DNA from: a virus
Virus record (IMG/VR): IMGVR_UViG_3300025840_000015
Coordinates: 1-64,000 of that record
Length of the DNA stretch: 64,000 nucleotides
Direction: 5' to 3' (one strand)
Shown one piece after another: positions 9,759 through 60,479 of this stretch. Under the pieces are notes generated by a model. The model had not been told where the DNA came from and did not search any database. It was given only the letters and a program-made list of their open reading frames with translations. A program made the translations under genes and the position numbers. How positions within the stretch are numbered: the first letter of the stretch is position 1; each line of letters opens with the position of its first letter.

Positions 9759-11174
9759 TCACATGAGGTTCTGAACCTTGACTCTTCTGTAGTATACGTT
9801 CGAGTTGGTTGAGATGTTGTCAGGAGCAACAGATTCGGTTGCACCCTTAGCGAATGGATTAGCGACAACCGCATAGCGGGTCTTAAATCCAATCTTGGGC
9901 TGGAATGTTTGCTCACCAACGGCACGAACCATTTGGAGAGGAACGTATGGGCAATAGAATAGACCTGCATCATAAGGGTTGGTTCCCTTATAACCTACAA
10001 CGTAGAACTGGTTAGCAGCAACGTTTGCAGAATATGGATCGATGTAAACTCTATACTTACCTTGGAGAACACCAGCGAAGGTATTTCCAGTGTCATCAAC
10101 GTTCAAGTTAGCGTTGAGTGCAGGGGTATAATCCAGAACACCTGCCATCGTGAGTGCTGAAGCAACGTCTGCGGAGCAGAGGATCATGTTGCCCTTTCCT
10201 CTACGAGTTTGCTGTGCAATTGCGTTTGCATCGCGCTCGATCTGGAAGATAAGACCCTTGAACTTCTCAACTGACCAACGACCGTTTGAATCAACGTCAA
10301 GGTCAAAAGCACCAGGGGTAGCAGTGTTAACCTGAGCACCAGGAACAGCAACTTTATAGATGGTTCTGATGATTTCTCGGTTGATTTCAGCAAGAATTTC
10401 AGTGCTGAGGATGTTTGCCAACTCAGCTTCTGCATTCAGACCGTGGATTGCTCTGAGGTCTTGTGCAAGTTCTAGCGAATATTCTGCCTTGAGTGCGCGT
10501 GACTTAGCAGTTGCAGTAAGCTTTTCAATCGAGAACGCCATCTCGTTGAAATAGTTGTCTGCAGCATCTCCGAGTGCTTCAGAAGCACCGGTTTCCATAC
10601 CACCGCCAACGTTATACTGGCTATTGCCAGGAGCAGCGTTATTTGCTTGATTTGAAGCATCGAGGATTGAAGGATTGCTTCCACCTTGTGCCGTGGTTCC
10701 AAGACCAACGGTTCCATCGGTGAATCCACCTTCGAGATTGAGTCCCTTGTTCTGACCAGAGAATGCAGAATCGACTTCGTTGTAGAAAGTCTCTGCGCCA
10801 GTCTGGTTGTTGTAACGCGAACGCATTGCAAAGATGAGTCCGGTAGGACCATTCATTGGCTGAACGCCGCAAAGATCATAAGCGATCAGATTAGGCATTG
10901 AACGTCTGATTAGTGAAATCAGAACGGGATCAAAACCTGCAACAGGAGTTCCTGTTGTGTTTGAAGCACTACCACTAAATCCACCAGTTCCGGCAGAGTT
11001 TGTTGGGCTTGCTTCGCTGAGGAATGCTCTTTCCTCACGTAATTCTTTCTCTTGGTTCTCTAGCAGGATAGCAGTTACCGCTCTACGATGTGAATCTTTG
11101 ATTGGATCCATTCCTTGATAATCAAGGATTGGTGACCACTTCTCCTGCAGATATTCTGTATTGTACATCTGCAT
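9759..11174 (-). CDS. gp23: Major capsid protein
   Basis: GVQPMNGPTGLIFAMR, ELAQDLRAIHG, YCPYVPL, FQPKIGFKTRY. Confidence 0.99.
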   Translation of the reverse strand: MQMYNTEYLQEKWSPILDYQGMDPIKDSHRRAVTAILLENQEKELREERAFLSEASPTNSAGTGGFSGSASNTTGTPVAGFDPVLISLIRRSMPNLIAYDLCGVQPMNGPTGLIFAMRSRYNNQTGAETFYNEVDSAFSGQNKGLNLEGGFTDGTVGLGTTAQGGSNPSILDASNQANNAAPGNSQYNVGGGMETGASEALGDAADNYFNEMAFSIEKLTATAKSRALKAEYSLELAQDLRAIHGLNAEAELANILSTEILAEINREIIRTIYKVAVPGAQVNTATPGAFDLDVDSNGRWSVEKFKGLIFQIERDANAIAQQTRRGKGNMILCSADVASALTMAGVLDYTPALNANLNVDDTGNTFAGVLQGKYRVYIDPYSANVAANQFYVVGYKGTNPYDAGLFYCPYVPLQMVRAVGEQTFQPKIGFKTRYAVVANPFAKGATESVAPDNISTNSNVYYRRVKVQNLM

Positions 11175-51985: not shown

Positions 51986-52158
51986 CCTCGGTCAGTCACG
52001 ATCAGACAATCTCCATCAACCTCGATGTTTAGGTTTGTGCCCTCATACCATCCCTTCTCATCGAGAATCCACTGGGGAATTGTGATAAAAAATTCACCGC
52101 TAACTGTATCCACCTCTACGGTTGTTAAATTTTCTGCGCGATTTTTTTTCATTTTCAT
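51982..52158 (-). CDS. AbrB/SpoVT-like small DNA-binding protein
   Basis: FITIPQWILDEKGWYEGTNLNIEVDG swapped-hairpin pattern; start trimmed to MKMKKN. Confidence 0.7.
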   Translation of the reverse strand: MKMKKNRAENLTTVEVDTVSGEFFITIPQWILDEKGWYEGTNLNIEVDGDCLIVTDRG

Positions 52159-52359
52159 GTTTTCTTCTCTAGTTTTTATATAGGACTTTGAGGATTTTTG
52201 TGGGCACGAAAAATTTTTTGAATCGAGAAGCGTTTTATATTTACTTCGCGATCGTAACACTTTATAGATTAGGGTAGTTAGGGGTTTTATATACGGGGGG
52301 GGCATGGATCGGATCATCGGCGCCCCGCCCGCGCGGGGCACTGTGTTTTACGAAGATTG

Positions 52360-52388
52360 GGGCGGCAGGGTATAAAGAACTGCCGCCC
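52360..52388. terminator. GC hairpin after the 139-aa ORF
   Basis: GGGCGGCAG-N11-CTGCCGCCC; the loop contains TATAAAGAA. Confidence 0.55.
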
Positions 52389-52400
52389 GCTAAGTGTAAC

Positions 52401-52820
52401 TTAGAGTCCGAACTTTTCCCGACAGATAGGACCGATTCCTAACTCTATTGAAAGAGGGTTAGTTAGTTCACGAGCGCAACACGAGCAGGTGCCAGTATTC
52501 TGCCCGTAAAGTTTAGCGGCAGAGTAAGGATCAGCGGCGACGGATTGCACCCGTTTGATTAGATCAACCTCACCCAGATTAGTGGCGTTAGAAGTGATCC
52601 AACCCAGATAAATGTTGCTCATTGTGCCCCACTGATTAACCTCTTTATCGTGAGAAAAAACATACATTTTTCCCTGATATTTCGAGGGTTTAACTATAAA
52701 GTCTTGGAATCGCATTGTGATTCGCTTAAGACCGCGATTCTGTGCCTCTTCAATTGCATTAATGATCCCGCTAAAGTTATGGGCGGGAATGGCATTGTGG
52801 CGGATGATGGGATGGCGCAT
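52401..52820 (-). CDS. Protein with C-terminal DUF6011-like zinc finger
   Basis: CSCCARELTNPLSIELGIGPIC. Confidence 0.8.
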   Translation of the reverse strand: MRHPIIRHNAIPAHNFSGIINAIEEAQNRGLKRITMRFQDFIVKPSKYQGKMYVFSHDKEVNQWGTMSNIYLGWITSNATNLGEVDLIKRVQSVAADPYSAAKLYGQNTGTCSCCARELTNPLSIELGIGPICREKFGL

Positions 52821-52915
52821 GATGCTTACCGGTGGTTTGGTTGGTGCGGGTTCTGCCCCGCGTGATCTAATGGTAAAGAGTAAGGGGGGGAGAATGCCCC
52901 CCCGTTAACATTAGT

Positions 52916-53215
52916 TCACACTCCCAGGAACCGGGCGATCCGCTCACGCTTGCGAAGCGGCAGGAGGCGTTTGTAGGAAACAAAGGAGCGGCGCCCAATG
53001 CTGTATTCATAGCGGCGCACCATCCCTTGTGCCGCCATCTCCTTAAGAAGGATGGAAACGGTGGTGCGTGCCTCCTTGGGCATCCCCAGCGCCCGGTTGA
53101 TCTCAGAGGGTCCAAGACCGTGGCGGGTTTTGTCCCCATCCATCGGCAGAACCGACAGGATCGCCCATTGGTAGGTTGCGCCGAATGCCTTGCGATCGGT
53201 GATGGTGGTGAACAT
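52916..53215 (-). CDS. Winged-helix DNA-binding protein
   Basis: LGPSEINRALGM...TVSILLKEMAAQGMVRR followed by a beta wing. Confidence 0.7.
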   Translation of the reverse strand: MFTTITDRKAFGATYQWAILSVLPMDGDKTRHGLGPSEINRALGMPKEARTTVSILLKEMAAQGMVRRYEYSIGRRSFVSYKRLLPLRKRERIARFLGV

Positions 53216-53279
53216 GGTTCAGTGGTGGTGAACGACCCCCATAAATTACCGGATCCACAGGAACCTGCCAACGTGGGGT

Positions 53280-53303
53280 TGTGACACCTTTAGGATTGGC
53301 ACA
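53280..53303. promoter_or_regulatory. 24-bp palindromic element (representative of about 12 copies)
   Basis: TGTGACACC-N6-ATTGGCACA, upstream of TTGGCA-N17-TAATTT on the minus strand. Confidence 0.7.
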
Positions 53304-53314
53304 ACCCCAGTTTG

Positions 53315-53506
53315 TATAAAGAATAAAACAAGGATTGCAAGATATAAAGAATAAGACAGGACTGAATGTAAAGAATAAACCACACCACTGACCAATAGTT
53401 TACATTCAATCCTGTGTTATTCTTTATACTCAGAGAAAATATAAAGAATAAAGAACTGATTAGGATTCATTCTTTATTCTTTATACTCAGTGTTAAGTAT
53501 AAAGAT
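53315..53506. repeat. AT-rich cluster of TATAAAGAATAA motifs forming inverted repeats
   Basis: 30-bp arms 53343-53372 / 53399-53428 (28/30 match); 16-bp perfect arms 53440-53455 / 53470-53485. Confidence 0.9.
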
Positions 53507-53512
53507 TAAGAT

Positions 53513-53623
53513 TTATTTCTTTTTCCTCCTTTTGTTTGCTGATTGTTTCTTCGGTGTTAGAATGTTCTTAAACCTTTTATCAGGACGTGATTTACCATCC
53601 CGATGAATCCATTTGTTTGCCAT
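53513..53623 (-). CDS. 36-aa basic peptide
   Basis: MANKWIHRDGKSRPDKRFKNILTPKKQSANKRRKKK. Confidence 0.5.
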   Translation of the reverse strand: MANKWIHRDGKSRPDKRFKNILTPKKQSANKRRKKK

Positions 53624-53628
53624 GTTCT

Positions 53629-53793
53629 TTATACAAACTGTGCAGGTGAACCACAAGACTGATAGAATCTAATCATTCTCTCTGCCTCTTCCTTTGTAGT
53701 GAAAGATTGTGTTCGCCATTGGCATTCATTATATGGTGATATGTATTTAATTGTGAAACCAATTGAATTAATTTGTTTTTGATTGTTGTTCAT
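53629..53793 (-). CDS. 54-aa hypothetical protein
   Basis: MNNNQKQINSIGFTIKYISPYNECQWRTQSFTTKEEAERMIRFYQSCGSPAQFV. Confidence 0.65.
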   Translation of the reverse strand: MNNNQKQINSIGFTIKYISPYNECQWRTQSFTTKEEAERMIRFYQSCGSPAQFV

Positions 53794-53880
53794 TGTTTGG
53801 TGTTTGTTTTAATGTTGTTTTATTGTATTGTGCGCACACATCTCGTCGAGATTCTGTATGCGCACATCTCGTCGAGATTT

Positions 53881-54015
53881 CTATACTTCCTCAACCTCCA
53901 ATCCAAGGAGTTGATCAACAGTAACCTCCAAAAGTGCTGCCAATTCTTCATCACTCATCCATGTGATGTCGATCGGCATTTCTTCGATCTGTGCGGTGGT
54001 GGTGAAGTGATCCAT
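53881..54015 (-). CDS. 44-aa acidic protein
   Basis: MDHFTTTAQIEEMPIDITWMSDEELAALLEVTVDQLLGLEVEEV, with an ACC-rich leader. Confidence 0.65.
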   Translation of the reverse strand: MDHFTTTAQIEEMPIDITWMSDEELAALLEVTVDQLLGLEVEEV

Positions 54016-54101
54016 GGTTTCTGGTGGTGGTGCGGGTTCCTGTCCCGCTTGCTCTAATGGTAAAGGGTAATGGGGGCGTTGCCGCCCCCCTGGCAGACGG
54101 T

Positions 54102-54311
54102 TCAGCGATTGGCACGACGGCGGCGGATCTCATCGCCATAGGTGTGCGCCTCATCGTCGTAACGACCCTCAGCGATGGGGTTCCATCCCCGCATTGCCTC
54201 AGCGGCGCGGCGGGCATCCTGGGCGCTCCAGAGCAGCGCCTCATCGCTCATGCTCTTGGCACGTGCCTCCCAAGTGGCGAAATCAGCGGCGGTGGCGTAA
54301 GTGGCGATCAT
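54102..54311 (-). CDS. 69-aa hypothetical early protein
   Basis: MIATYATAADF...YDDEAHTYGDEIRRR; start trimmed to follow the TACAAT box and leader. Confidence 0.7.
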   Translation of the reverse strand: MIATYATAADFATWEARAKSMSDEALLWSAQDARRAAEAMRGWNPIAEGRYDDEAHTYGDEIRRRRANR

Positions 54312-54450
54312 GGTCCGGTGGTGTGAACTGCGATAATTGTAGCAGATAATTGGGGGGGGAGAGAGGAGGAGATCGATCGAATCCCCATTGTGACGATTTA
54401 TGAACAGTCCACCGATTGTCTGATTCTGGCGCCGGGCGCGTGTAGAATAA

Positions 54451-54512
54451 GGGGACAATCAGATGAGGGGTGGGGTAACCCCGTTGATGAAATGGTCGCC
54501 ACGCCCCCTGCG
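54451..54512 (+). ncRNA. Candidate structured small RNA, copy A
   Basis: TAGAAT -10 box, then GGGGACAATC..GAGGGG..GGGGTAACCCC..GATGA..TCGCCAC GCCCCCTGC; paralogue at 56620. Confidence 0.5.
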
Positions 54513-54638
54513 CAATTTTATTTGCGAACAATTGTGAAATGTGTTGACCCGACCGGATCCCCTATGCTAGGATTGGGGTAGAACCTTTTGTATGTTACGG
54601 ATTGTTAAAGAAAGGGGGCGTTGCCGCCCCGTTGTGGT

Positions 54639-54926
54639 TCAATGGAAAAAGTCGTAAGGCGTTTGCTCTGTCGGATCATATCCCTCCCAGAGCATTGCTA
54701 CAGTGCTAGCAATGCTGCGCTCTGCCTTCCAGCAGTCTAGGATGACATCCAGTGCCCAACCGTCATCAAGGGTGGCAGGGGGGCATTCCTGCGCCTCCAC
54801 AGCATCCCAGAACTCTCCAAAGGACTCATCCTGCCAGCAGGATTCGGAATCCAGCGCCATGCGCCGGTTGTATTCTTGGCGCTCTTGGCGCTCCATCTCT
54901 GCAAGGGTGCTGTTGTGAAAATCCAT
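54639..54926 (-). CDS. 95-aa acidic hypothetical early protein
   Basis: MDFHNSTLAEMERQE..., own -10 box and ACC leader, GC hairpin downstream. Confidence 0.7.
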   Translation of the reverse strand: MDFHNSTLAEMERQERQEYNRRMALDSESCWQDESFGEFWDAVEAQECPPATLDDGWALDVILDCWKAERSIASTVAMLWEGYDPTEQTPYDFFH

Positions 54927-55001
54927 GGTTCCGGTGTGGTGCGGTTTGCTTTGAAAGTATAGAGGCAAAGGGAGCAGGGGTCAACCTGCCCCCCGTAGGG
55001 A

Positions 55002-55175
55002 TCAGACCGTCTGATCCTTAATGGCATCATGTACCTCTCCCAGCATGTCATACCAACGGGTTAGACCTTTTTGACCCATTTCGTGCCCTTTGGCGGACAG
55101 GAGCGCGATTCGGATCGTATCCCAATCGCCTGCGGCAAGGGTGACGGTTTTGTTTTTGGTGGTGGTGGTGCTCAT
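55002..55175 (-). CDS. 57-aa hypothetical early protein
   Basis: MSTTTTKNKTVTLAAGDWDTIRIALLSAKGHEMGQKGLTRWYDMLGEVHDAIKDQTV; promoter ATGACG-N17-TAGGAT. Confidence 0.65.
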   Translation of the reverse strand: MSTTTTKNKTVTLAAGDWDTIRIALLSAKGHEMGQKGLTRWYDMLGEVHDAIKDQTV

Positions 55176-55264
55176 CAGTCTCGGGTGTGGTGCGGGTTCC
55201 TGTCCCGCTTGAGCATATCCTACATCAGAAGGGGGGATCCGTCATCCCCCCCAGTGGACGGTGG

Positions 55265-55927
55265 TCAGACCGTCACAATCCTGTCTGCCTTTTTCTTTGC
55301 TGTTCCATGCGACGGAAAACATACAATAACGTTACGGTCGGAGTTAGCACAAATGCCGCAAGTTGCACATGTAACATTATCATGAATCTTTGCAGGGCAG
55401 ACTACACATTTGCGACCGTTGGTTGTTGTGAAGAACCGGCGCGATTCTGTGGAGGGAACAACAGCAACGGCAGGGATTCCGTGCTCTGTCATCACTTTAT
55501 CAGCAACCTCTACAGACTCACAGGATGCAGAGATTGTGAAACCTTTGCTGTTTGCTTCCTTGATAATTTCAAGGTTCTCAGTGTTGAGAACGTGGTGAGT
55601 GTAAGTGTAACCTTTGCGCCCTTTGTTTGCTGCCACCAGATCAGCAACACTGGCGCGATCGATGTTCCCATCAACATGGGGCAGATCACCGGATACGTTG
55701 TGGCGCCAGATCTGACCGCGTGCAATCCGGCGAACCTTAGAGAGGAATTCCTCCCATACAATGCCGGTTTCGGATACCTTGCGCCATGCCGCGCCCTGGA
55801 AGTGGAATTTGGCGTAGCACGCTTCCGCCATGGGGCAGGTAGCGGGGCAGGATGCCTGTTCAGTGGTGCTGGCAGGGATCCTGCCAAGTTGGGCGTTGCT
55901 GCTGGCGGGGTTGAAAGAGACGCGCAT
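55265..55927 (-). CDS. Cys-rich phage protein, possible Fe-S (radical-SAM-like) enzyme
   Basis: SCPATCPMAEACYA, RHNVSGDL, GYTYTH, CPA...TCATCGIC...H. Confidence 0.7.
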   Translation of the reverse strand: MRVSFNPASSNAQLGRIPASTTEQASCPATCPMAEACYAKFHFQGAAWRKVSETGIVWEEFLSKVRRIARGQIWRHNVSGDLPHVDGNIDRASVADLVAANKGRKGYTYTHHVLNTENLEIIKEANSKGFTISASCESVEVADKVMTEHGIPAVAVVPSTESRRFFTTTNGRKCVVCPAKIHDNVTCATCGICANSDRNVIVCFPSHGTAKKKADRIVTV

Positions 55928-55997
55928 TGGTGTGGTTGCGACTGATCAAACAATAACAGGGGGGAGAGCGCCTGCCAACCCCCCTAGTGGACGGTTA

Positions 55998-56477
55998 TCA
56001 GATCGCCACACCATCCTGGCGAAGGCGATCCACAAGACGGGATGCCATGGCGCCACAATGGGGGCACTTTGTGGCGTATTTGATCTCTGATTTAATTTTA
56101 TGATCTTTCACCCGTGCGAACTTATAACGATAAACTTTGCTAAGTGTAAGCATTGCCTGCCTTTTTGTAATGTCGTTTTCATCAATCTCACGGTAGATTG
56201 TCACCAGATTGTGATAGGACAGGGTAGGATTACGGCGGATTTGATTCAATCGTGAAACTGCAAGTTTGGCGAATACTGCATCACCAGTAGTTTCAGTGAC
56301 TACATCAATCAGATAATCGTGAAAAGCAATAAGTTCTTCTTCTTTCTTTTGCTGCTGTTCTTTCTGTTCTTCCTCTTTCTTGATTGATTCGATCTGGGAG
56401 GTAATTTCCCGGAAAGATTCCACGAACTGCTTCTGCAGTTCGTTCAGGTTTGCGGTGAGAGTTTGGAGGTCGCTCAT
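55998..56477 (-). CDS. 159-aa protein with N-terminal coiled coil and C-terminal CPHC
   Basis: Start trimmed to MSDLQTLTAN. Confidence 0.75.
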   Translation of the reverse strand: MSDLQTLTANLNELQKQFVESFREITSQIESIKKEEEQKEQQQKKEEELIAFHDYLIDVVTETTGDAVFAKLAVSRLNQIRRNPTLSYHNLVTIYREIDENDITKRQAMLTLSKVYRYKFARVKDHKIKSEIKYATKCPHCGAMASRLVDRLRQDGVAI

Positions 56478-56619
56478 TGTTCTGGGTTGGGGTGGAATCG
56501 GATCCGTTTGTCCGATGGGCACAGTATGCCCCGGCAAGACGGGGCAGATCAACCAACCCTGTGCCACTACCAGAACCGTCCACAAGGGCGTTGTAAGGTC
56601 TTAAAATGCTCTATTGTAT

Positions 56620-56682
56620 GGGGACAATCGAAAGAGGGGAGGGGTATCCCTGTAGACGACAATACATCGCCACCGCCCCTGC
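56620..56682 (+). ncRNA. Candidate structured small RNA, copy B
   Basis: TATTGT -10 box, then GGGGACAATC..GAGGGG..GGGGTATCCC..GACGA..TCGCCAC CGCCCCTGC. Confidence 0.5.
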
Positions 56683-56707
56683 CATAAAATAATTGTTTCA
56701 ATATGTT

Positions 56708-56880
56708 AAAAAAAAGGATCCCGCACCACCAGGATCCTCTAGACTCCAATCACCAGATACGCTATACCCATATTTTATCTTAACGTTCTCGCAGAGTGAC
56801 TTTTTTTTTCTTTACAATGTGGGCAAACTCCTTCCCACACGGATAACTTTATTTTAGAGAGGCAAATCCCTTCCTCTTAA
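56708..56880 (-). ncRNA. Candidate non-coding RNA or long 3' UTR with twin hairpins and a terminator
   Basis: AGAGG-AAGGGATTTG-CCTCT and GTGGG-AAGGAGTTTG-CCCAC hairpins, ending in AGGATCC-N10-GGATCCT plus a T run. Confidence 0.45.
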
Positions 56881-56882
56881 GA

Positions 56883-57077
56883 TTATTGTATCATCCAATG
56901 TGGGTCATTGTCAAGTGCAACCCAGAAAAAGTTACGATTGTTTGCACTTCTTAAGAATAGTTTGTTGTTCACGATTTGTTCAATAATGCATACAGAATCG
57001 CGTGCCATTAAATTGGCGAATCTGTTTTTTGCTTTTGATGAAATCGGTTTGACTTGAATGGTTTCCATGATGTCCAT
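56883..57077 (-). CDS. 64-aa hypothetical protein
   Basis: VKPISSKAKNRFANLM...FFWV...DPHW; TATAAT upstream. Confidence 0.75.
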   Translation of the reverse strand: MDIMETIQVKPISSKAKNRFANLMARDSVCIIEQIVNNKLFLRSANNRNFFWVALDNDPHWMIQ

Positions 57078-57171
57078 TGCAATGTGTTCATTATAATGGA
57101 TGGTGATAATCTCGTCGAGATTGTGTGTGCCAATTGTTATGGTGTCACAATCTCGACGAGATCCTTTTAGA

Positions 57172-57393
57172 TCACTGCTTGACGAGAGTCAGTTGATTCT
57201 CACGCAGTGCATTGTTGAAAAACTTACCAACGCTACCATCAGAATTGATGGTTTCCGTCAGAGTCGAAATAAACTGTTCTGCATTAACCACACCGTAGGT
57301 ATAGTCTCGACCACCAGTAAAGGTGACGGTCACTTGATCATCGACAACATCAGAGATAGATTCGATGGCGGAAGAAGTGAACTTAGGGAACAT
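57172..57393 (-). CDS. KTSC-domain protein
   Basis: SSAI..I....VTVTF..G..Y.Y.V...SVGKFFN. Confidence 0.8.
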   Translation of the reverse strand: MFPKFTSSAIESISDVVDDQVTVTFTGGRDYTYGVVNAEQFISTLTETINSDGSVGKFFNNALRENQLTLVKQ

Positions 57394-57464
57394 GATTTAG
57401 AATTGTGTAAAGGAACAGATGGAGTCTTTAGGGCGCTGCCGTTCCCTGTGTGATCAGTCTAGCA

Positions 57465-57611
57465 TCAGAACTCGATGGTGTCTAGTGTAGGACAAACAGT
57501 TTCGCCAGATTCACAAGTGTCACTCCCATCACAGAGAACATCAAGAATTCGAAGGATTTCTGATCCATTGGAACCTTTGCGGAGTGCGTGGATGTAAAGT
57601 TCTTTAGTCAT
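57465..57611 (-). CDS. 48-aa hypothetical protein
   Basis: MTKELYIHALRKGSNGSEILRILD; TAGAAT upstream. Confidence 0.65.
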   Translation of the reverse strand: MTKELYIHALRKGSNGSEILRILDVLCDGSDTCESGETVCPTLDTIEF

Positions 57612-57681
57612 TGTTGCCTTTGGTTGACTCTGTAATTCTAAGGGCATGGCGGGGACATTGCTGCCCCCCTTGTGCCACTGC

Positions 57682-58188
57682 TCAGACTGTCATAAGGAGA
57701 GCAGGTTGTTCTGTAACGAAATCATACTCTTGGGTGTTAGTGTCACCCCAACCCAGTTTCCAACACTGCCATCCCAAACCAGGAGTAAACAGATAGCACC
57801 ATTCCTCTCCACAATCACCTGAGAGAAACTCATCGAAGTTGCTCATCCTAGGAGGAGCATCTTCACCTCGCTCACTATAATACAGTGGAGCAGGTTTTGC
57901 TTTTACTGGAGAATAGACCCACTGTTCATTATCAGTGGTGATATATTCTACAGTTCTGTTACCCTCAGAATCATAGATCTCTTTTTTGAGAGGAACAGAA
58001 TCCCAACGATGTGTGGTGTGCAACTGCCCCATATCACCACCGTTGATGAGTTCTTCTACCTGTTCTTTATACAGGTAGTTGTCAATAAGTTGGCGACCAT
58101 TGTGTTGAATGTAACCATCATAATGACAGTAAACACTAATGATTTGATCGGGTCCGAGAGCAAGACCGATGCGAGAGCGAGTTCCCAT
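57682..58188 (-). CDS. Conserved phage hypothetical protein
   Basis: MGTRSRIG...SVYCHYDGY...GEEWCYLF pattern. Confidence 0.8.
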   Translation of the reverse strand: MGTRSRIGLALGPDQIISVYCHYDGYIQHNGRQLIDNYLYKEQVEELINGGDMGQLHTTHRWDSVPLKKEIYDSEGNRTVEYITTDNEQWVYSPVKAKPAPLYYSERGEDAPPRMSNFDEFLSGDCGEEWCYLFTPGLGWQCWKLGWGDTNTQEYDFVTEQPALLMTV

Positions 58189-59301: not shown

Positions 59302-59533
59302 AACTCGTCGAGATTCTACTGTTTACTTGTGTATTGTAGCATGATTCTCGTCGAGATACAACTAATTGCCTGATATATTCTCGTCGAGATCTCATACCAT
59401 ATATGTATAAAAACGTCAAGGAATTGTGTGGATTTGCAAATTTTTATGTCTGGATGTGAAGATTTTTGCCGGGCGCTTGACATTTTCGGCGTCTTGTGAT
59501 AGTGCGCACGCCAAACTCACAAGACCTGGGCAC

Positions 59534-59635
59534 ATTACCATAAGATATAAGAGTTATTACCATAAGATACCAGGCACATTACCATAAGATATAAGAACCA
59601 TTATCATAAGATATAAAAGTTATTATCATAAGATA
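59534..59635 (+). repeat. Five direct repeats ATTAYCATAAGATA with an exact 22-bp period (iteron-like)
   Basis: Copies start at 59534, 59556, 59578, 59600, 59622; an AT-rich tract follows. Confidence 0.95.
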
Positions 59636-59774
59636 TAAGAGTTCAAAACCCTTTATTTATACAATTTAACTTCATTTTAATCTCTTATATCCTGATTTCA
59701 ACAAAAAATGCCCAAAAAAGCACTGTTACAATATAAATTACATACATACAATACAGTTAAACACTATTGCCCCA

Positions 59775-60479
59775 ATGTCAGGCGCCATTTACCTCATAAT
59801 CAACAAACAAAATGGACACAAATACATAGGAAAAACCACAGATTCAATAGATTCTGCCTGGAAAGAGCATATTATCCTATCAAATCGTATGGATAGGAAT
59901 CCACTACATCTTGCTCTTCGTAAGTATAAACCTCACATGTTTTTACTTAAACCAATAGAGGATGTAGATAATAATTTAGATGAAAGATATGATTATTGGT
60001 TAGATAGATATAATCCAGAATACAATTCTAACTCCTTTACTGATGAGAATACTGAAGTTAAAACAATTGAAGTAAAGAAAGAAATAGTTTCTACCCCCAA
60101 AAAGAAGTCTAAAAGACCAGAAAAAACCAAGGGATACACAATACAAGGTATGAATCTGGCAACTGGTGAGATTAGAACATGGGAATCTGCCAGGGAGGCA
60201 GCACGTGATATTACTGGTGATGCAAAGAAGAATTCAAATATATTACGATGTGCTCGTAATGGATATAAGTATTATGATCATGTATGGAAAATTATTGAAG
60301 ACTTTAGATTCAGAAAAGTGAAGGCGGTAAATAGAAAAACATGGCAGGAATTTCACTTTGACAATATAGCAGATGTATTTAAAAAGACCGGTGTTAAAAG
60401 AGATCCACGTTTAAAGAAAGTATTAGAAAGTAATGGTAGATTAACATGGAAAGGATATATGTGGTTCTATACGGAGTAA
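59775..60479 (+). CDS. GIY-YIG-family protein with two NUMOD1-like DNA-binding repeats, predicted catalytically inactive
   Basis: AIY-X10-YIG, WESAREAAR..I..C....Y...W and F.NIADV...L......GYMW; Ala28 and Tyr72 at the catalytic Arg and Glu positions. Confidence 0.85.
   Translation: MSGAIYLIINKQNGHKYIGKTTDSIDSAWKEHIILSNRMDRNPLHLALRKYKPHMFLLKPIEDVDNNLDERYDYWLDRYNPEYNSNSFTDENTEVKTIEVKKEIVSTPKKKSKRPEKTKGYTIQGMNLATGEIRTWESAREAARDITGDAKKNSNILRCARNGYKYYDHVWKIIEDFRFRKVKAVNRKTWQEFHFDNIADVFKKTGVKRDPRLKKVLESNGRLTWKGYMWFYTE

Follow-up and report, generated by a model that had tools for sequence, protein, structure and literature searches.

Promoter-linked, hairpin-bearing elements of freshwater T4-like cyanophages as candidate small RNA genes

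Two related elements in a T4-like genome

The stretch of DNA analysed here, called the window, comprises 64,000 nucleotides of IMG/VR virus record IMGVR_UViG_3300025840_000015 and represents the first 64 kb of an incomplete contig of 116 kb. On its gene content, this contig is that of a T4-like myovirus, since its large genes include homologues of the T4 major head, portal, sheath, terminase, and baseplate-wedge genes. Nearly every gene of the genome is carried on the minus strand, and ARAGORN revealed neither tRNAs nor a tmRNA in the window. Our subject is a pair of short plus-strand elements located between 54443 and 56693, which an earlier note, made from the letters of the sequence, had described as paralogous structured non-coding elements and which are considered here as candidates for small RNA genes of the phage. 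The proteins encoded in their neighbourhood are mostly without known function; a DUF7227 protein is encoded between the two copies.

The hexamers TAGAAT (54443-54448) and TATTGT (56612-56617), both on the plus strand and both corresponding to a fixed-offset TANNNT of the homologues, each finish 2 nt before GGGGACAATC, which starts at 54451 and 56620, respectively. From there on, shared blocks follow in identical order in both copies, each closing with an AT-rich stretch, and a repeat search displayed 79% identity over 43 nt. The layout given in the earlier note could thereby be read directly in the sequence, including the 24-bp palindrome that it had placed about 30 bp upstream: this imperfect palindrome (TGTG...CCAC) lies at 54389-54412 for copy 1, where it is common to a divergent minus-strand gene and stands 30 nt before the hexamer, and at 56560-56583 for copy 2, 28 nt before the hexamer.

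The conserved core of copy 1, putatively transcribed from the plus strand, reaches from a predicted start at A54455 to CUGC (54455-54511; covariance model R1, alignments A1-A3). It contains a hairpin at 54467-54482, in which 54467-54471 pair with 54478-54482 around the loop GGGGUA (54472-54477). After the hairpin come a conserved unpaired block (G-NN-GAYG ... UCGCCAC, 54483-54502) of invariant or nearly invariant columns with no covarying partner and, according to the alignment, a variable GC-rich hexamer, CUGC, and an AU-rich stretch (54503-54530). Copy 2 is built in the same way, with a putatively transcribed core from A56624 through CUGCC and AUAAAAUAAU (56624-56693; model R1, alignments A2 and A3), a hairpin at 56636-56651 (stem 56636-56640 with 56647-56651, loop GGGGUA at 56641-56646), and an unpaired block of the ACAUCGCCAC subtype at 56652-56673, as placed by the alignment. 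Both hairpins are backed by pairing and compensation across the family. Model R1 recovered copy 2 with an E value of 5e-18 and copy 1 with 6e-14, and neither this model nor a regular-expression scan detected a further copy in the 116-kb genome.

The family, its promoter and its orientation

Homologues were collected by two pattern scans of viral contigs and one scan of metagenome contigs, followed by a DNA profile search of the fetched loci; all family counts are lower bounds, taken among the matches listed. The family comprises at least 186 distinct cores, with at least 293 profile hits in at least 242 public loci, and the pattern scan of metagenome contigs matched more than 119 loci. Because such a large family exists, a chance resemblance of the two copies is excluded, and the proposal that they represent a family was confirmed. 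The earlier note had also failed to recognise a known family, which agrees with our searches: no Rfam 15 covariance model gave a gathering-score match in the 64-kb window, and at E values up to 10 within 54300-56900 the lone match was a chance snoRNA elsewhere in the stretch. The family was found neither in Rfam nor in the literature searched.

Among cultured phages, BLAST and the covariance model located the element, unannotated, in two freshwater Synechococcus myoviruses, S-SRM01 with two copies and DSL-LC03 with one; the model found no copy in the marine phage S-SKS1 or in phage S-2L. The copies of S-SRM01 are 1.5 kb apart and bracket a DUF7227 gene and an adjoining gene, in the gene order found around copy 2 of the window. 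Two copies are also present in a complete contig of 279 kb. In loci with several copies, 44 of 51 neighbouring pairs share one strand, the median distance between neighbours being 1.6 kb, and the two subtypes of the element usually occur together, as they do in this window. A pattern scan of cellular genomes gave, among the matches listed, a single true match, a 4.9-kb contig of a metagenome-assembled genome (MAG), and the covariance model had no match in 151 genomes sampled from the phylum to which an Obscuribacterales MAG belongs. The gene content around the element varies between lineages while the element itself stays constant. A protein of 54 amino acids adjoins it in 58 of 122 loci; this protein matched no family and had no homologue in cultured phages.

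A TANNNT hexamer at a fixed offset from the core was present in 183 of the 186 distinct homologues, exactly 16 nt before GAGGGG in 142 of them, while at other offsets such hexamers numbered six or fewer nearly everywhere, with a single other peak of 49 at 11 nt. This bears out the plus-strand, host-type promoter proposed for the two copies, and some members even display a perfect TTGACA-17-TATAAT. In 179 of 183 cases, A occupies the seventh place after the hexamer; this A stands at the position expected for a sigma-70-type polymerase and is therefore our predicted start. As the four bases preceding it differ between lineages, the GGGG with which the motif opens probably belongs to the promoter discriminator in the DNA and not to the RNA, which would begin with ACAA. 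Judged by comparison alone, the element possesses a promoter of its own, as is asked of a small RNA gene of the bacterial type.

In 137 of 183 homologues, the right half-site of the palindrome has its end 29-31 nt upstream of the hexamer, which means that the element uses the promoter architecture of the surrounding early genes. The same palindrome, in opposite orientation, precedes minus-strand genes of the window at 55254-55279, 55987-56010, and 57670-57694. Palindromes of the type TGTGCCA-N10-TGGCACA were seen about 30 nt upstream of the -10 hexamer at many promoters of the GC-rich island that houses both copies, and this palindrome looks like the site of one regulator controlling the early genes together with both elements.

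With regard to orientation, 135 of the 142 elements with recognisable neighbours (95%) run antisense to all of them, so that the direction against the gene flow, first noticed in the two copies, is a property of the family; a few elements lie the other way round with respect to the same neighbours.

Hairpin, conserved unpaired block and ends of the putative transcript

The earlier note had proposed a multi-stem RNA of roughly 60-80 nt, with AGGGG and CCCCT closing the structure, a GGG-TAW-CCC hairpin, and a short YGA/TCG stem. All of these pairings are possible in the two copies of the window; across the family, only the hairpin holds, and that in another register. RNAalifold on 101 sequences returned a single 5-bp hairpin, and an unbiased mutual-information scan, in which the top pair was the innermost pair of the stem (C-G 104, A-U 57, U-A 15, U-G 8), showed no Watson-Crick covariation outside it. 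The supposed closing stem was paired in 65% of cells with no compensation, and the YGA/TCG stem was equal to shuffled columns, so that a multi-stem fold found no support. What is supported instead is a stem GGGGN/N'CCCY around a conserved 6-nt loop, RRGGUM.

As the search patterns had fixed most of the stem bases, divergent profile and model hits as well as both S-SRM01 copies were added for the helix test. The helix is 99.5-99.8% paired, with 99.5% in this expanded set, in which changes on both sides were seen at four of five pairs; none of 500 shuffles attained the value observed, and slid controls gave 44-60%. The pair types observed were GC/AU/CG, GC/UA/AU, GC/CG, and CG/AU/UA/GC/UG, and in copy 1 of S-SRM01 two stem pairs are swapped with pairing kept. 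About 90% of the sequences have G-U as the terminal pair, and four to eight have U-G at the variable inner position; read from the minus strand, both would become A-C mismatches, which places the fold on the plus strand. The first and last bases of the loop also co-vary in a non-Watson-Crick manner (G:A 129, A:C 40, A:A 17), a pattern typical of a non-canonical closing pair in RNA. On the 3' side of the hairpin, about 30 conserved bases with no pairing partner end in UCGNCAC and are followed by the hypervariable GC-rich hexamer, CWGCC, and the AU-rich stretch.

A 5-bp hairpin with sheared-pair-like covariation at the ends of its fixed loop, beside a conserved linear box, behind an early promoter and in two paralogues per genome, is reminiscent of a nut- or put-like antitermination site, at which the nascent hairpin and the box would alter RNA polymerase, allowing it to pass downstream terminators and to make a long antisense RNA. 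We regard such a function as highly improbable: there is no plus-strand gene block downstream to be expressed, the 6-nt loop RRGGUM is not a GNRA-like pentaloop, no boxA consensus is present, and one conserved hairpin stands against the two of put.

The substitutions in the hairpin also bear on the idea that the element acts mainly as DNA, as a cassette junction of the promoter-early stem-loop (PeSL) kind, that is, a promoter/stem-loop module that regulates its neighbours and serves as a recombination joint for gene cassettes, the RNA being a by-product. The T4-like phage, the GC-rich island of small genes, the variable neighbours around a constant element, the two or more same-strand copies 0.8-3.8 kb apart, and the few elements inverted relative to the same neighbours would all fit. 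However, the compensatory changes, the G-U bias of one strand, and the non-Watson-Crick covariation of the loop point to selection on a folded single strand, and PeSL promoters run with the genes and drive an open reading frame (ORF), whereas the promoter here runs backwards into a conserved non-coding segment. We consider a junction of this kind quite unlikely.

The size of the RNA is uncertain: its conserved core measures some 60-70 nt, and many homologues have a terminator at 100-120 nt. Of 102 homologues, 48 possess a downstream terminator-like site, consisting of a hairpin and a U-run on the plus strand; in 33 of the 102 it lies 100-120 nt from the start, the most frequent interval, and it is usually a two-way terminator common to the convergent gene. 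By the same criteria, both copies of the window lack a canonical plus-strand terminator. They are followed only by hairpins with no U-run, namely a GC hairpin after an A-run at 54614-54630 and a GGATCC...GGATCC hairpin after an A8 run at 56716-56737. By their sequence, these appear to be terminators of the minus strand, the first that of the convergent gene, and may act as weak stops for the transcripts of copies 1 and 2.

A transcript that converges on the terminator of its neighbour, two-way in many homologues, invites the explanation that the element is a cis-acting antisense unit, whose backward promoter fires into the terminator or 3' end of the preceding gene and acts by collision of polymerases or by pairing with the 3' end of the message, the core merely stabilising the RNA or setting its level. 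The orientation against the genes, kept in 135 of 142 elements, and the placement of nearly all genes of this genome on the minus strand agree with it. Nevertheless, the convergent gene differs between lineages, yet the core sequence is conserved far from any overlap, and a fixed loop with a fixed platform of 30 nt exceeds what a stabiliser needs; we therefore consider an antisense unit of this kind unlikely.

The order of promoter, G-runs on the non-template strand, and AU-rich stretch, together with the usual two copies per genome, could also indicate a replication-origin transcript. At the T4 origins ori(uvsY) and ori(34), an RNA made from a promoter stays hybridised and primes DNA synthesis, and here the G-rich RNA would remain hybridised in the downstream AT-rich stretch and prime in the same manner. 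On the other hand, a covarying hairpin with a fixed loop is not known from the T4 origins, a terminator lies close behind in many homologues, and the stretch is no richer in AT than the whole genome. Moreover, the window contains another origin candidate, five tandem 22-bp iteron-like repeats at 59529-59638, which form a possible replication-origin or binding array. An origin transcript seems very unlikely to us.

That neither copy has a credible ORF, as claimed earlier, was corroborated. Indels of 1-2 nt between the copies and subtypes shift every frame, which led us to reject coding potential on both strands; a start codon is also missing from copy 2. Stop-to-stop frames downstream were also considered as genes and rejected; such frames are uninformative in GC-rich DNA, and the real genes at one of the loci (L057) lie on the other strand. 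Two further folds were discarded as well. A long-range stem between promoter spacer and variable tail (12 of 14 bases in copy 1) was no better for cognate than for non-cognate combinations (-16.8 vs -15.8 kcal/mol), with a median rank of 39 among 98 and a complementary 6-mer in 20 sequences vs 15 +/- 3. A long-range alternative fold of members with a C-rich tail was absent from the second subtype and displayed no covariation.

Some variation around the core deserves mention. The GC-rich hexamer is widely variable between genomes, yet identical or nearly so between paralogues of the same genome at three loci (L067, L010, and L050), while at other multi-copy loci it differs between such paralogues; where they match, gene conversion or a shared genome-specific partner could be responsible. 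In some homologues, the spacer between palindrome and hexamer repeats part of the core perfectly in inverted orientation; this copy amounts to 22 nt at locus L151 (about 10427-10450), it was also seen at L129, L056, and L075, and the part copied differs by lineage. In the window, a further plus-strand promoter-like site lies at 54544-54590 (TTGACC, 18 nt, TAGGAT, then GGGGTAGAACC), and this unit of hexamer plus GTAGAACC recurs near the element at other loci in either orientation.

A possible role, the surrounding island and known systems

Each copy can be read as a separate gene for a small non-coding RNA of the phage that acts in trans early in infection, a reading to which we assign a probability of roughly one half. 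It is favoured because a fixed loop on a freely varying stem, combined with a fixed unpaired platform, resembles an RNA that binds a partner. The host RNA polymerase would use a -10-dependent promoter, which has its upstream 24-bp palindromic site in common with early genes nearby. Its transcript would start at A54455 or A56624, seven bases behind the hexamer, and extend along the plus strand in the direction opposite to the gene flow. The resulting RNA would consist of a short leader, the 5-bp hairpin, about 30 unpaired bases, the GC-rich hexamer with CWGCC, and an AU-rich stretch, and in many relatives it would end at the two-way terminator 100-120 nt from the start. As the sequence of the stem is free to vary and the six-base loop RRGGUM is fixed, loop and platform may be what a protein or RNA partner recognises, and the backward orientation may serve to keep the RNA out of read-through messages. 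More tentatively, and with distinctly lower confidence, the loop and the 30-nt platform might bind a host or phage protein, with the RNA acting as an early decoy or as a component of a ribonucleoprotein for the take-over of the cell, present as two diverged paralogues per genome in freshwater T4-like cyanophages.

Several results weigh against a trans-acting small RNA. The -35 region is weak on average, and promoter activity may need an unknown factor; the structural support consists of one short helix; and the folding energies of the core were no better than those of shuffles (z from -1.3 to +0.3), single-sequence folding being uninformative on both strands with z-scores near zero. The conserved unpaired block might just as well be recognised as DNA, and the canonical terminator is missing in both window copies. 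Target searches yielded no candidate: duplexes with the start regions of phage early genes were no better than shuffles, and matches in the sampled genomes, true host genomes not being available by name, were scattered and at chance level. Complementarity to the own locus or its flanks gave no signal either. The features of type I and type III antitoxins, overlap with an ORF and a tandem array, were not found.

Both elements reside in an island with small genes at 52000-58000 of the window, with a GC content of 44-55% compared to about 30% for the genome. Pieces of this island resemble freshwater and marine cyanophages, a 69-aa gene at 54102-54311 matches an unannotated stretch of S-2L, and the island as a whole suggests imported cassettes. 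Just 3' of copy 2, positions 56707-56803 show 77% identity to an unannotated stretch of S-SKS1 that adjoins a tRNA-Leu gene, and carry a 10-codon ORF and a terminator on the minus strand. Three early genes have a conserved minus-strand leader in common (52840-52889, 54027-54076, and 55187-55236), which forms a hairpin at its extreme 5' end and continues as a CA-rich ACCAC stretch to the start codon. CA-rich leaders with no Shine-Dalgarno sequence and ACC directly before ATG are found in most early genes here. A second palindrome, ATCTCGTCGAGAT, precedes other small genes in pairs (53837-53878, 57106-57162, and 59342-59390) as a distinct operator-like site. Short TATAAAGAATAAA and TTCTTTATAC repeats, direct and inverted, are densely clustered at 53308-53640, and this repeat also occurs downstream of the element in phage DSL-LC03 (locus L154, 4090-4140). 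One of the very few plus-strand genes encodes a GIY-YIG/HNH homing endonuclease (59775-60479).

To our knowledge, few phage-encoded small RNAs have been described, and for cyanophages almost none. The family is abundant in metagenomes from lakes, estuaries, and other aquatic habitats, and comparison alone is enough to define its promoter, strand, and hairpin. Since two cultured phage-host pairs, those of S-SRM01 and DSL-LC03, carry the element, its expression and function can be tested directly.

Non-coding elements of T4-like cyanophages have been listed before, namely CfrI, PhotoRC-II, wcaG, manA, glnA, and abiF, all of them Rfam families (PMC9964418). They share with our element their occurrence in this group of phages, but most are cis-regulatory leaders of genes, whereas the element has no downstream gene and no Rfam match.

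Lambda OOP RNA overlaps and pairs with the 3' end of cII. OOP and other short phage antisense RNAs (reviewed in PMC12197685) resemble the putative transcript in being short, promoter-driven, free of an ORF, and convergent on a neighbour. In contrast to OOP, the convergent gene of the element varies and its conserved part lies outside any overlap; there is no relation in sequence or in Rfam. The nut sites of lambda combine a boxB hairpin, with a GNRA-like pentaloop, and a boxA consensus, and the put sites of HK022 have two hairpins. Likeness to these systems lies in two paralogous sites behind early promoters and in a fixed-loop hairpin beside a linear element, while the element differs in its type of loop, its lack of boxA, its single conserved hairpin, and the lack of genes downstream on that strand.

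The closest parallel in setting is provided by the PeSL cassettes described in T4-type phages (PMC2839356, PMC4122927): both occur in T4-like phages, in a hyperplastic region of small genes, as repeated intergenic modules of a host-type early promoter and a terminator stem-loop flanking variable ORFs. A promoter and a terminator stem-loop between ORFs were indeed found here; a promoter driving the adjacent downstream ORF was not, the downstream genes being on the other strand. Where a PeSL promoter runs with the genes, drives the next ORF, and yields no conserved RNA, that of the element runs backwards, has no ORF, and is followed by a conserved segment of 60-70 nt with a covarying hairpin; its -35 is weak and its upstream palindrome conserved. 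The intergenic cassettes of hyperplastic regions in T4-like phages may thus hold RNA genes besides promoters and terminators.

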